Below, piece by piece: positions 5,418 to 10,144 of a stretch of DNA of 12,492 nt (positions are counted from its first letter, which is position 1; every line of letters begins with the position of its first letter). The notes beneath the pieces were generated by a model. That model made no database searches. It saw only the letters and a list, made by a program, of their open reading frames with translations, and had not been told where the DNA came from. Position numbers and translations under genes: made by a program. Source of the stretch: an uncultured archaeon (GTDB lineage Archaea > Iainarchaeota > Iainarchaeia > Iainarchaeales > CSSED10-239); assembly GCA_964463155.1 (NCBI GenBank), contig CAYXAY010000020.1:1-12492 (forward strand), written 5' to 3'.

Positions 5418-5918
5418 TTAAAAAGCAGCTTTGGCTTCCTTGGAAAATATCAAGTAGCCTGCGATAAATCCGTAGATTACAATTCCTGCGATATTTGATA
5501 GGTCTCCAGTGAATAATAGACCTATAATTGCTCCAAAAAATGCAAGGCATGCAAGTATCATTATTACATATCTTGCCCAGTTTTTTAGCTTAAACAAACT
5601 TAAACCAAGATAAAATATGAAAGCACCCCATATTATTGCAAGAATTCCAATTATCAAAAAGAATGTTGGAGTATAGAATGCAAAAACTTGCGGACCTACT
5701 GTTGCTGTTGATTTCAATAAGTAATCATTTGCTTTCTTTGGAAAGATTATTATCAATACGCCAAACAGAAAGGCTAAGATTGAAACAATTATATAATATG
5801 TTGAAATTATCTTTATGCCTAGTGGTTTTGTGTGCTTTGTTTCTACTTTCTTTTCTACTGGTTTACTCGCGACTTTCTTTGCTAGCGCTTCTTCCGTAAT
5901 TTTCTTTTTTACTGCCAT
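5418..5918 (-). CDS. Small integral membrane protein: Lys-rich N-terminal tail plus about 4 TM helices, function unknown
   Basis: Four long hydrophobic stretches by eye: IISTYYIIVSILAFLFGVLIIIF, FFLIIGILAIIWGAFIFYLGL, YVIMILACLAFFGAIIGLLF and IAGIVIYGFIAGYLIF. AGGTGA SD lies inside the 3' end of the Pop5 gene. Confidence 0.6.
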   Translation of the reverse strand: MAVKKKITEEALAKKVASKPVEKKVETKHTKPLGIKIISTYYIIVSILAFLFGVLIIIFPKKANDYLLKSTATVGPQVFAFYTPTFFLIIGILAIIWGAFIFYLGLSLFKLKNWARYVIMILACLAFFGAIIGLLFTGDLSNIAGIVIYGFIAGYLIFSKEAKAAF

Positions 5919-5921
5919 TTT

Positions 5922-6251
5922 TTATTTCACCTTTTTTATTGTGCTTTTTATGTCTTTTACTTTTAGCAACCCTAGATCGGATTGAGCAAAAAACAAAGAC
6001 GCAATAAATGTATCTAAATATTCTTTGTTAATTCTTATTAATAACGTTTTGGTTTTTTGTTCAGTGTCAATAATTGTGATGTTTGTTTCAATTTGAGAAA
6101 ATATCCCACTTTGTTTTTGTAAGGCCTTGTAAAGTATTGTTTGCACTATCTTGGAATCTATTGGCTGGTTATAGGTAAGCAATTGCAATTGCAAATATCT
6201 TTTTTTGTGCCTTAAAGTCGGCTTTATTACTGCTAGTCTTTTCTTTTTCAT
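5922..6251 (-). CDS. rnp2: RNase P protein component 2 (Pop5 homologue)
   Basis: IKPTLRHKKRYLQLQL matches the Pop5 N-terminal signature (lPptlRekkRYl). About 110 aa. Follows Rpp30 with an ATGA overlap. Confidence 0.75.
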   Translation of the reverse strand: MKKKRLAVIKPTLRHKKRYLQLQLLTYNQPIDSKIVQTILYKALQKQSGIFSQIETNITIIDTEQKTKTLLIRINKEYLDTFIASLFFAQSDLGLLKVKDIKSTIKKVK

Positions 6252-6841
6252 ATATTTTCTGTTAATGTTCTTTTGATAAGTGGTTTTTCTAAATTAAAAT
6301 TTTTTAAAAACTCCTGAATAATAACAGGGTCAAGTAATTCATCTGCAGTTTTTGCATAGCTGATAAACTTAAACTCTATTTTGTGTTTTTCAAGTATTGG
6401 GATACTGAACTGCATCTGTTTGATTGATTTGTTCTGGTTGTTTCTTATCTGGTTTATGTTGAAGAAAAATAGTTTGTTGTTTTGCTTTGCTATTCTTGCT
6501 AATCCCTCGTCAATGCTGGTTTCCTGGACTATTGGGTCGAATAAATGGATAGGGATTTTGGTTGAGAGTATATTAGATATTGCTAGGATGTCCTTACCTT
6601 GTCCAAGAATTACTGTGTTTTTCGAAATAATTGATTTGCAGGTGTTTAAGAGATTGAGGTCTGTAAACAAAAGCGCTTTTCTAAATTGTTTTCCAGACGG
6701 CAAAGGATAATCTACATCTTCTTTTGTTTTTACTTCTTTAATCACATAAATTGTATAAATACCTAATTGTTCTAAATTCTTTGAAATATTCGGATATTTG
6801 AATAACTCACTTGAAACAAAATCAATATATTTTTCTTTCAT
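6248..6841 (-). CDS. rnp3: RNase P protein component 3 (Rpp30 homologue), divergent
   Basis: The size, the pattern YIDF..LGIYTIYV..VILGQG..IHLFDP..IAKQNNKLFFFNINQI..KFISYAKTADELLDP (compare Rpp30 yDl..lGy..v.gg..vDil.p..la..n.vafEi.l..itSgA.s..elr.P), and its position just upstream of Pop5. Confidence 0.6.
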   Translation of the reverse strand: MKEKYIDFVSSELFKYPNISKNLEQLGIYTIYVIKEVKTKEDVDYPLPSGKQFRKALLFTDLNLLNTCKSIISKNTVILGQGKDILAISNILSTKIPIHLFDPIVQETSIDEGLARIAKQNNKLFFFNINQIRNNQNKSIKQMQFSIPILEKHKIEFKFISYAKTADELLDPVIIQEFLKNFNLEKPLIKRTLTENI

Positions 6842-8542: not shown

Positions 8543-8560
8543 AATCAATTACCTTTAAGG

Positions 8561-8633
8561 CGAGCCCGGAGGGATTCGAACCCTCGACCCACAGCTTAGA
8601 AGGCTGTTGCCCTATCCACTAGGCCACGGGCCC
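8561..8633 (-). tRNA. tRNA-Arg (anticodon UCU), 73 nt, no intron, CCA not encoded
   Basis: Folded by hand. Acceptor GGGCCCG/CGGGCTC (one G-U pair). D stem GCCT/GGGC with loop AGTGGATA. Anticodon stem ACAGC/GCTGT with loop CTTCTAA. Variable region GGGTC. T arm GAGGG-TTCGAAT-CCCTC. Discriminator G. Confidence 0.9.
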
Positions 8634-8687: not shown

Positions 8688-10067
8688 TTATTGTGCTATT
8701 TGATTTGTATCTTGGGGATATAATCTGTTGTATTGTTCCTCAAGATAAGCTATCGCTGTTAGGTGTTTGGAATAAACGCTATTGAATATGTTCGTATACA
8801 CATCGTTATTCTCTTTTTTTAATTCAAATAATGCTTGATGCATTTCTAGATATTTGCCTTGTTTTTCTACACATCTAGATACCAGTAATGGTTTAATCGC
8901 TGTTTGTTGATGTGATGGGACTGCAATGAAATCTTTTATGATTATTGCAACATCATCTGTCTCTAGGATTCTTTTTTGAGTTTCCGTCTCAAACTTTGCA
9001 CAGAAAGAACATTCAAAGTCAGTAAACACATACATCTTTACTGGAGAGCTGGTGTTACCCATTACAAAATCTCTGTTGTCTGCTAATAAGCTTGTATCAA
9101 GTATTTGTATTATGTCTGTTGGAATTATCTGAACTGCTTCTGACATTATTTCTTCATTAAACTGATAACCATTAGCATTTGTTTTTGCGAAGAGTCGATT
9201 AAATATTTGGCTATTGTTTTCATCTGTCAGTAATACAGATTCATCAACTTTTCCTTCTATGTAAAAGACAGGTATTTGTTTTGCGTCTATTGCCTCTAAT
9301 ATTTCTTTTCCTTTTGTGGAATCGTAGCTATATCTTTCTGTAGGCAAATCGAACATGTATTCAAAAAAGTTTGCAAGTTGTGGGTTTAGAGTTGTTTCAT
9401 TTTGTAAACTTGTAATTAATGTGTCTGTTCCGTCTTTTATATGTTGATGGTTTTCATTGTCTATAATTATTAGTTTTGCTGGAATTGTGGTGTTTGATTT
9501 GTATGTCTTATTTGTGTAATCTAATGAAAAGTTTGTTTTTGCATCATCTTTTGCTAAATTTATGTATTGTTTAAACACATTATAATCCTTAGCTCCTGAA
9601 ATCTTGTAGCTGCCAACAATTATCGCTGGCGTTCCTGTAATTTTTAGGTTTTGTGCTAACTCGCGGTCTGCCTGTATTTTTGAAATTATTTCATGGGCCG
9701 GATTTTCCATAATTTCTGCAATACAGGAATCAATTTGTGTTTTGTTTACGCCTATGTCCAAATATATTGGTTCAAACAATGCATTGTACCCTTCATCTAC
9801 TTCTGATTGCACTATTTCCCCTAATTCCTTTACTTTTATTTGGAATTCGTCCTCTGTTAAGTTAGTGTCTAATGTGGTTATTGAAATGTTATGGTCGTTT
9901 GTTTTTGTGGTTTTGTTTTTTGTAAGCATTACTGTTGCAAACACTGCCCCAATAATCAAGATAATTAGGATAATTATCCCTATTAGCCAAAAATTAATTT
10001 TTTGTTTTGGTATATGATTCACAACCTGGTCTTTGTGAACGATTTTGTGCGTTTTTTGTTTTTTCAA
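8688..10067 (-). CDS. Membrane-anchored extracytoplasmic thiol:disulfide oxidoreductase, DsbA/thioredoxin-like, multi-module (TTG start)
   Basis: N-terminal TM anchor FWLIGIIILIILIIGAVFATVML. CxxC active site FTDFECSFCAKF (C353/C356, nt 9000-9011). DsbA-type cis-Pro segment KITGTPAIIVGSYKISG (aa 142-157). TTG start at 10067 preceded by AGGTGAT. Confidence 0.7.
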   Translation of the reverse strand: MKKQKTHKIVHKDQVVNHIPKQKINFWLIGIIILIILIIGAVFATVMLTKNKTTKTNDHNISITTLDTNLTEDEFQIKVKELGEIVQSEVDEGYNALFEPIYLDIGVNKTQIDSCIAEIMENPAHEIISKIQADRELAQNLKITGTPAIIVGSYKISGAKDYNVFKQYINLAKDDAKTNFSLDYTNKTYKSNTTIPAKLIIIDNENHQHIKDGTDTLITSLQNETTLNPQLANFFEYMFDLPTERYSYDSTKGKEILEAIDAKQIPVFYIEGKVDESVLLTDENNSQIFNRLFAKTNANGYQFNEEIMSEAVQIIPTDIIQILDTSLLADNRDFVMGNTSSPVKMYVFTDFECSFCAKFETETQKRILETDDVAIIIKDFIAVPSHQQTAIKPLLVSRCVEKQGKYLEMHQALFELKKENNDVYTNIFNSVYSKHLTAIAYLEEQYNRLYPQDTNQIAQ

Positions 10068-10144
10068 AGTATCACCTTCTTATGCTTAACTATAAAAATT
10101 GTAATTATAATATATTATATGTATAGATAAAAATTTAAAAACAA
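10068..10144. promoter_or_regulatory. Divergent intergenic region (DsbA-like gene to the left, taw1 to the right) with several TATA-like boxes
   Basis: Contains aactataaaaatt, ataatatattatatgtatagataaaaatttaaaaa. There is no SD before taw1, so a leaderless or short-leader transcript is possible. Weak evidence in AT-rich DNA. Confidence 0.3.

Follow-up and report, generated by a model that had tools for sequence, protein, structure and literature searches.

Can a protein that carries the two halves of a DsbA domain in reversed order still bring them together into one DsbA fold? DsbA is the textbook disulfide-forming enzyme and a classic subject of engineered circular permutation, and the question is raised here by a natural gene. 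The gene lies on a 12,492-nt contig (CAYXAY010000020.1, assembly GCA_964463155.1; GC content about 32%) of the lineage CSSED10-239 of the Iainarchaeota; this whole contig is referred to below as the window. The open reading frame (ORF) at 8688-10067 on the minus strand encodes a protein of 459 amino acids (aa), which a first-pass annotation had described as an exported DsbA-like protein with its halves swapped around a cysteine-less thioredoxin-like module, and had read either as a circular permutant that reassembles across the module or as the remnant of a tandem duplication. The reading that we favour, with a probability of roughly 0.75, is a thiol:disulfide oxidoreductase of the DsbA / Thioredoxin_4 kind, anchored in the membrane and facing outward, the catalytic domain of which is a natural circular permutant.

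Order of the DsbA halves in the protein and its family

The Pfam matches to the window protein are partial and inverted. Positions 4-94 of the 165 positions of Thioredoxin_4 (PF13462) fall on aa 332-421 (E value 2.2e-16, 61 bits, cutoff 23.2), and positions 128-190 of the 191 positions of DSBA (PF01323) fall on aa 101-169 (E value 6.8e-9, 36.2 bits, cutoff 25.6). Since positions 4-94 lie C-terminal and positions 128-190 N-terminal in the protein, the domain halves are in swapped order. A phmmer search of PDB sequences also gave two matches to the DsbA 4pwp, residues 67-156 aligning with aa 331-419 and residues 188-234 with aa 120-169. The reversal of the CxxC and cis-Pro halves that had been read from the sequence was thus recovered by both kinds of match, and the mapping with PF13462 and PF01323, which the first-pass annotation had proposed as a check, found no complete normal-order domain.

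The N piece (aa 72-178; 9534-9854, on the minus strand like all parts of the gene), delimited by PF01323, hhalign and a structural model, derives from the C-terminal part of the ancestral DsbA. It contains a long extra helix (72 to about 96), the equivalents of alpha4-alpha6, the cis-Pro loop, beta4, beta5 and the last helix, and is modelled with helices at 72-105, 109-121 and 126-140, strands at 148-151 and 154-157 and a helix at 162-175. The C piece (aa 325-459; 8691-9095), delimited by PF13462, hhalign and the model, is the ancestral N-terminal part. It contains beta1, beta2, the CxxC-alpha1 segment, beta3, alpha2-alpha3 and two extra C-terminal helices (423-449); the model has strands at 335-337 and 343-349, a helix at 356-370 and a strand at 373-379, followed after beta3 by helices at 384-401, 406-419, 423-434 and 436-449. 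The middle module, M (aa 179-324; 9096-9533), has no cysteine and lies where the ancestral C-terminus meets the ancestral N-terminus.

The motifs lie where they had first been noted. The cis-Pro loop motif G145-T146-P147 (9627-9635) aligns with the GTP of DsbA crystal-structure sequences. The CxxC motif C353-S-F-C356 (9000-9011), at the start of alpha1, aligns with CPFC or CPYC of solved DsbAs (CPFC in 4pwp); in the model it follows the strand at 343-349 and opens the helix at 356-370. The third motif, IPVFYIEGK, surrounds P266 of M. The chain ends, as had also been observed, without a second cis-Pro strand. A tRNA-Arg(TCT) gene (8559-8633, minus strand) begins 54 bp past the stop codon and takes up the 140-bp interval between the permuted gene and the arginyl-tRNA synthetase (ArgRS) gene, so that a frameshifted remainder of DsbA would find no space there.

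When the halves were returned in silico to the canonical order (aa 325-421 joined to aa 97-178), a single colinear match to PF13462 was obtained (positions 4-164 of 165, E value 1.9e-19, 70.9 bits compared with 61 bits in the native order), and the de-permuted sequence aligned in single stretches with DsbA crystal-structure sequences, for example with residues 69-233 of 4pwp. We also aligned each piece by hhalign to a 177-column alignment of normal-order DsbA units. The N piece (aa 74-178) matched columns 85-176 with a probability of 98.9% and the C piece (aa 328-454) matched columns 2-124 with a probability of 99.75%; together they span the whole DsbA domain, and about 40 columns of the alpha3/alpha4/alpha5 region are doubled. 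Such an overlap would result if the two truncations were not at the same point. The alpha4-5 signature (Y..L.L....C) is present as a well-conserved copy in the N piece and as a diverged copy in the C-terminal tail, and the diverged copy is itself conserved inside the family (Y446 invariant, L442 near-invariant). Since the protein has the DsbA profile, the CxxC and the helical cap but not the canonical order, it is a topological variant of the DsbA-like kind and not a canonical member.

The same architecture recurs in other genomes. A single-sequence homologue search with the window protein gave 2 relatives, and one with the family profile at least 5, the limit of 8000 scored candidates having been reached, possibly on account of Lys-rich tails; the permuted family surfaced in an exhaustive search of 1.84 billion 50%-identity cluster representatives, which yielded 5567. 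Among the best 150 of these were about 20 permuted-order clusters with 26-38% identity to the window protein, most of which keep M and a few of which lack it. The closest relatives (P0012-P0017, P0023, P0024, P0026, P0027, P0029 and P0030) are colinear with it over their full length. Hidden Markov models (HMMs) of the three parts (c, M and n) were then run over 192 fetched proteins and revealed the architecture c-M-n in 43, c-n without M in 11, n-c-M-n-c in five and n-M-n-c in one, the other sequences being mainly normal tandem arrays (n-c-n-c...). P147, P266, G272, K378, P393 and C399 are invariant in the family alignment and C115 and C356 near-invariant. The CxxC is present in 51 of the 54 permuted proteins, mostly as CPYC or CGYC. 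Public annotations of the permuted proteins read only "thioredoxin domain-containing protein" or "protein-disulfide isomerase", and two of the carriers are labelled "Candidatus ainarchaeum sp." by NCBI.

Many of the listed homologues string together two to five complete DsbA domains in one long polypeptide (for example P0019, 1163 aa; P0020, 678 aa; P0090, 847 aa), and by the titles of the genome records the relatives come from candidate phyla radiation bacteria, DPANN archaea, Chloroflexota, Acidobacteriota and Myxococcota. A separate scan of genome contigs used generic CxxC patterns, and most of its 80 loci held ordinary DsbAs, L008, L043 and L010 among them. The informative loci were only L047, a short permuted form in a syntenic position, and L036, described below.

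The permuted gene occupies a fixed slot. All four of the relatives checked (P0002 and L047 of the short form, P0026 and P0013 of the long form, from DPANN archaea) share with the window the order Fe_hyd_lg_C, TYW1, permuted gene, tRNA-Arg(TCT), ArgRS, ..., Rpp14, proteasome alpha, SBDS, Rrp4, Rrp41, Rrp42, L37ae. This bears on the suspicion that the reversal is an artefact of misassembly, of a chimeric contig or of a frameshift. The sequence comes from one metagenomic contig, and the exact protein was found on that contig only. Nevertheless, dozens of assemblies made independently and drawn from four data sources (JGI, NCBI, ENA and Logan) have the same order and synteny, which rules out misassembly, and a frameshift or pseudogene was rejected on account of the conserved open frame and the lack of downstream space for a lost half. 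We consider that an artefact of any of these kinds can be discounted for practical purposes.

Predicted packing of the two pieces

The AlphaFold2 model of the window protein, made on a 16-sequence family alignment, has a mean predicted local distance difference test score (pLDDT) of 82 (about 90 over aa 70-450) and a predicted template modelling score (pTM) of 0.76. In this model the five DsbA strands are split two and three, beta4 (148-151) and beta5 (154-157) lying in the N piece and beta1-beta3 in the C piece. With only three strands the C piece does not make a complete thioredoxin fold alone, and the model thus gives no sign of the full fold over aa 353-459 that had been named as the outcome that would overturn the permuted reading. 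The helical-domain columns of the DsbA unit are likewise covered from both sides, by the helices at 384-401 and 406-419 of the C piece and by those at 109-121 and 126-140 and the end of 72-105 of the N piece.

A Foldseek search of the PDB with the full window model returned only half-domain DsbA matches (template modelling score (TM-score) at most 0.46, E value at least 9e-3), because a sequential aligner cannot bridge a permutation together with a 146-aa insertion, and these matches are uninformative on reassembly. The orthologue P0002, which is without M, was modelled with a pTM of 0.69. By TM-score and root-mean-square deviation (rmsd) its best Foldseek match was 1un2, with 200 aligned columns, a TM-score of 0.59 (normalised to the target) and an rmsd of 5.8 Å. 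The normal-order DsbAs alpha-DsbA1, BdbD, MdbA and DsbG aligned with the same model over approximately 130-150 columns, with TM-scores of 0.26-0.44 and an rmsd of at least 11.5 Å. The crystal structure 1un2 is that of cpDsbA_Q100T99, an engineered permutant of E. coli DsbA from work on random circular permutation (Hennecke, Sebbel & Glockshuber 1999), and its connectivity is shared with the window protein. That the P0002 model is closest to it indicates a chain connected as in a DsbA opened between alpha3 and alpha4. Structure prediction and Foldseek comparison, both suggested at the outset, point for P0002 to a permuted DsbA and found no independent complete normal-order DsbA domain.

Two cysteines of the helical domain connect the pieces further. 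Cys115 (in IDSC; 9723-9725) of the N piece is near-invariant in the family and Cys399 (in SRCVEKQGKY; 8871-8873) of the C piece is invariant; both are kept in 52 of the 54 permuted proteins, on different pieces and about 285 residues apart. At the same positions, 75 of 309 normal-order DsbA units (taken from 128 proteins) had both cysteines, 231 had neither and three were discordant, a near-perfect co-occurrence that is the signature of a disulfide pair. To judge from these patterns, a Cys115–Cys399 disulfide probably staples the split cap. The de-permuted match, the pTM, the match to 1un2 and the Cys pair together support the proposal that the protein is a circularly permuted DsbA reassembling across M.

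In the mechanism that we propose, the two remaining pieces would pack into one DsbA fold inside a single chain. The C piece would contribute beta1-3 and the C353xxC356 helix, and the active site would be completed by the cis-Pro147 loop and beta4-5 of the N piece. The helical cap would be built from alpha2-3 of the C piece and alpha4-6 of the N piece, stapled by the Cys115–Cys399 disulfide, with the chain break falling between alpha3 and alpha4, where that of cpDsbA_Q100T99 also lies. At the new termini the overlapping helices left over from the truncations (aa 72-96 and 423-449), which are conserved, may act as a clasp, and M, its cysteines lost, would hang from the old termini.

The placement of this assembly outside the cell is predicted from the N-terminus. 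A Lys-rich tail (aa 1-25; 9993-10067), seen in the sequence and with a pLDDT below 50 in the model, is predicted to be cytoplasmic by the positive-inside rule. It is followed by a single transmembrane (TM) helix (aa 26-47; 9927-9992), which corresponds to the hydrophobic stretch FWLIGIIILIILIIGAVFATVM and is a helix at 26-47 in the model. A K-rich tail ahead of the TM helix is found in all family members, the TM helix is conserved, and it is predicted to be a signal anchor that leaves the remaining chain outside the cell. With the ectodomain facing outside, the CxxC would exchange disulfides with exported proteins on the cell surface.

The pieces might instead find each other between chains. 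In such a domain-swapped oligomer the N piece of one chain would complement the C piece of another, with M as the spacer, within a dimer or chain of subunits anchored in the membrane. Domains that are split or halved are well known to undergo 3D domain swapping, a 146-aa module stands between the two pieces of the window protein, and the monomer AlphaFold2 runs are compatible with a swapped oligomer. We nevertheless think this arrangement unlikely, since in M-less orthologues only about 20 residues link the pieces, which are still modelled as one compact body (pTM 0.69) that can be superposed on the monomeric 1un2, and since the pTM of 0.76 for the window monomer denotes a confident intrachain arrangement.

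Several points weigh against an intramolecular permuted oxidoreductase. The Foldseek E values are weak throughout (2.1e-2 for 1un2 and 2.4e-3 for the best match overall), the case for reassembly of the window protein itself comes from its pTM and its homology to P0002, and a monomer prediction cannot tell intramolecular assembly from domain swapping between chains. Among the alignments to solved DsbAs that were listed, none has both helical cysteines; the pair C97–C146 of Wolbachia alpha-DsbA1 is a possible counterpart of C115/C399. The thioredoxin nature of M lacks statistically significant Pfam or PDB sequence support, and no VKOR/DsbB redox-partner gene was seen in the window or in the syntenic loci. 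The CSFC dipeptide of the window protein is unusual, and the CxxC has been lost in the family members P0026 (DEPNS; L085, 3590-5206) and P0037 (MYSGC), so that catalysis is not universal in the permuted family; this loss hints at a non-catalytic role in some lineages. P0026 and P0037 retain the remaining architecture and the helical Cys pair, with synteny shown for P0026.

The atypical CSFC, the two relatives without CxxC and the position of the window protein alone in its 90% cluster are also what speaks for a decaying or non-catalytic remnant of a broken tandem DsbA, with another role or none. This we regard as improbable. The architecture is conserved at 26-38% identity and in a fixed syntenic slot, 51 of 54 permuted proteins have the CxxC, the family shows an invariant cis-Pro and retains the helical Cys pair, and the model is of high confidence. 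Moreover, a pseudogene would not hold an open frame of 459 codons with a Shine-Dalgarno-like site, here GGTGAT (10071-10076, minus strand), read from the sequence 3 nt upstream of the TTG start.

Middle module and route to the permutation

In the model M is made up of a strand at 198-203, helices at 208-223 and 229-238, a strand at 243-247, a helix at 251-259, a strand at 267-271 and a helix at 283-292 with a small extension; the third of these strands is preceded by the invariant P266 (codon 9270-9272). The order beta-alpha-beta-alpha-beta-beta-alpha is that of the thioredoxin fold. The family HMM for M also matches proteins of the type DsbA–M–DsbA, the M modules of which carry a CxxC (CIYC, CYVC, CKPC or CDAC) right after the first strand and a conserved Pro ahead of the third. 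In the CxxC columns the window family reads NENH..IKD, and the cysteines are gone. One of the CxxC-bearing homologues matched Thioredoxin_2 at a sub-threshold E value of 0.005-0.006. The best PDB matches of the M profile were non-significant and consisted of Pyrococcus PDO units (1a8l; E value 0.11-0.14) and the thioredoxin MJ0307 (E value 0.7); in these non-significant alignments the N-terminal PDO unit and MJ0307 are in register with M at the CxxC and cis-Pro positions. M is therefore a probable Cys-less thioredoxin-like module. This part of the first-pass annotation stands as far as homology to CxxC modules and secondary-structure topology are concerned, and is weak in its Pfam and PDB statistics.

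The presence of a thioredoxin-like module directly upstream of the C piece raises another way in which the C piece could be completed, namely by the cis-Pro strand of M (IP266VFYIEG), with the N piece as an independent helical stalk. The invariant Pro before a strand at the cis-Pro position of a thioredoxin fold is in keeping with this idea. However, M has its own full beta-alpha-beta-alpha-beta-beta-alpha set, its CxxC-bearing homologues are self-contained modules, the N piece has an invariant P147, and orthologues without M keep the GTP of the N piece and are modelled as a fold like that of the permuted DsbA. Donation of the cis-Pro by M was rejected because M-less orthologues exist, and the arrangement as a whole appears very improbable. 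Under the permuted-DsbA reading, M can be thought of, speculatively and by analogy with the b domain of protein disulfide isomerase (PDI), as a redox-inactive substrate-binding or spacer module.

A fuller picture that joins these parts is tentative, and we are inclined to doubt it as a whole. In it the protein would be a DPANN-specific surface foldase by which evolution reproduced the engineered cpDsbA_Q100T99: a new clasp of the duplicated helices (72-96 with 423-449) closes the break in the cap, the membrane tether departs from the helical cap and so re-orients the active site with respect to membrane or partner, and the redox-dead thioredoxin module, carried by the old termini, binds substrate in the manner of PDI b. 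If true, this would be a one-chain "a+b" oxidative-folding machine with a topology undescribed for any Dsb protein.

The DsbA–M–DsbA proteins also bear on how the permutation arose. Proteins with a TM helix, a complete DsbA, an M with CxxC and a second complete DsbA are represented by P0061 (Woesearchaeota PIN70527.1), P0126, P0148 and P0124; the first DsbA domain of P0061 covers Pfam positions 4-165 of 165 and the second domain of P0126 positions 6-163 of 165. The window protein is colinear with the part of these proteins that runs from the C-terminal half of DsbA1 through M to the N-terminal half of DsbA2. For this reason the homology shows, at the level of sequence, a permutation by duplication or fusion and then loss of the outer halves, with M retained at the junction. 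An ancestor of the form TM–DsbA–M–DsbA, with M as a small thioredoxin/glutaredoxin-like CxxC module, would have lost the N-terminal half of DsbA1 and the C-terminal half of DsbA2 to leave C-half(1)–M–N-half(2). The earlier suggestion of a tandem-duplication remnant without its outer halves is in this sense well founded, and as both it and the permuted DsbA are supported, the two readings are two sides of one story.

A locus in a Nanoarchaeia metagenome-assembled genome (L036, JBNKLP010000001.1, 5587-6912) contains a 441-aa ORF composed of a TM helix, an M with SCTTC and a complete normal-order DsbA. M–DsbA thus exists as a building block on its own, and it may be the unit from which the DsbA–M–DsbA proteins were built. 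In a rough neighbor-joining tree of the shared pieces, made without support values, the permuted proteins form one clade and the M-less forms a subclade within it, which points to a single permutation event and a later loss of M in the short forms.

Comparison with known systems and gene neighborhood

Circular permutation of E. coli DsbA by engineering has yielded proteins that fold and are active (Hennecke et al. 1999, cited in PMC3281007 and PMC11348275); such permutants are also cited in PMC2395249, and permuted cases among thioredoxin-like folds in general are mentioned in PMC3091736. A literature search of incomplete coverage turned up engineered permutants of DsbA but no report of a natural one. 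The window protein is a natural counterpart of this classic protein-engineering result, yet the enzyme of which it is a variant is well understood, and the support for its activity and assembly comes from sequence and models. The natural family offers a real-world test of the break points that engineering predicted to be tolerated. With DsbA–M–DsbA relatives still extant, it is also a clear example of the duplication-then-truncation route, with the intervening domain caught at the junction. Permuted DsbAs are under-called by tools that follow the chain sequentially, among them Pfam domain tables and Foldseek. The family further bears on surface disulfide formation in the genome-reduced DPANN archaea, which is poorly known.

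The chain takes the same route as that of 1un2: starting in the helical domain after alpha3, it passes the cis-Pro loop, beta4, beta5 and the final helix, crosses the old termini, and goes on through beta1, the CxxC-alpha1 segment and beta3 to alpha2-3. T99/Q100 of E. coli follow the "PLFEGVQKT" helix, which corresponds in our alignment to "MHQALFELKKE" here. Unlike 1un2, the archaeal protein is natural, membrane-anchored and of the Thioredoxin_4 branch, with 12% identity to E. coli DsbA in the structural alignment of P0002 with 1un2. The old termini are joined by a short Gly linker in the engineered protein, but in the archaeal family by a linker of natural origin, or by the 146-aa module in the case of the window protein; the family also differs in keeping about 40 columns of overlapping helices at the new termini.

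Both halves are homologous to the normal-order DsbAs of PF13462 (C. diphtheriae MdbA 4pwp, B. subtilis BdbD 3eu3, ScsC 4xvw/6nen), with which the window protein shares the CxxC, the GTP cis-Pro motif, the helical insertion and export or membrane anchoring. It differs from them in the reversed halves and in the domain inserted at the junction, and only about one in four of the sampled normal-order relatives has its extra helical Cys pair. A homologous M and the same helical Cys pair are found in the DsbA–M–DsbA proteins and L036; the DsbA–M–DsbA proteins have complete normal-order DsbA domains and a redox-active CxxC in M, whereas the window family is without the outer halves and without the cysteines of M. 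The PDI-type foldases (the a and b domains of eukaryotic PDI; Pyrococcus PDO, 1a8l/1j08) combine one catalytic thioredoxin-fold unit with a redox-inactive thioredoxin-like one, as the window protein probably does. In contrast to them, the catalytic unit of the window protein is a DsbA with a helical cap, the sequence relation is non-significant (E value 0.1-0.7), and a domain has been inserted at the old termini, a topology unlike that of beads on a string.

The remainder of the window is largely occupied by housekeeping genes: those for prefoldin, L37ae, the exosome proteins Rrp42, Rrp41 and Rrp4, SBDS and proteasome alpha, together with an Rpp14-like RNase P subunit and ArgRS, and, on the opposite strand, TYW1 and an Fe-hydrogenase-like protein. 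Two ORFs (5418-5918 and 6248-6841, both on the minus strand) had no Pfam match. One encodes a 166-aa polytopic membrane protein and the other a protein of 197 aa between the ArgRS and Rpp14-like genes; in the syntenic loci the slot of the 197-aa ORF holds an ORF of similar length (196-207 aa), also without a Pfam match.

A small membrane protein with a CxxxxC and a winged-helix-like C-terminal part is encoded in the Woesearchaeota locus L008 (JAGVXW010000033.1, 5225-5728), directly upstream of two adjacent, separate DsbA genes, and could be a regulator or partner of Dsb genes. The tRNA-Arg(TCT) gene lies between the permuted DsbA gene and ArgRS in all four syntenic loci (L088, 11574-11647; L001, 6642-6715; L085, 5286-5359; L047, 7167-7240), a conserved pairing of a tRNA with its own synthetase.

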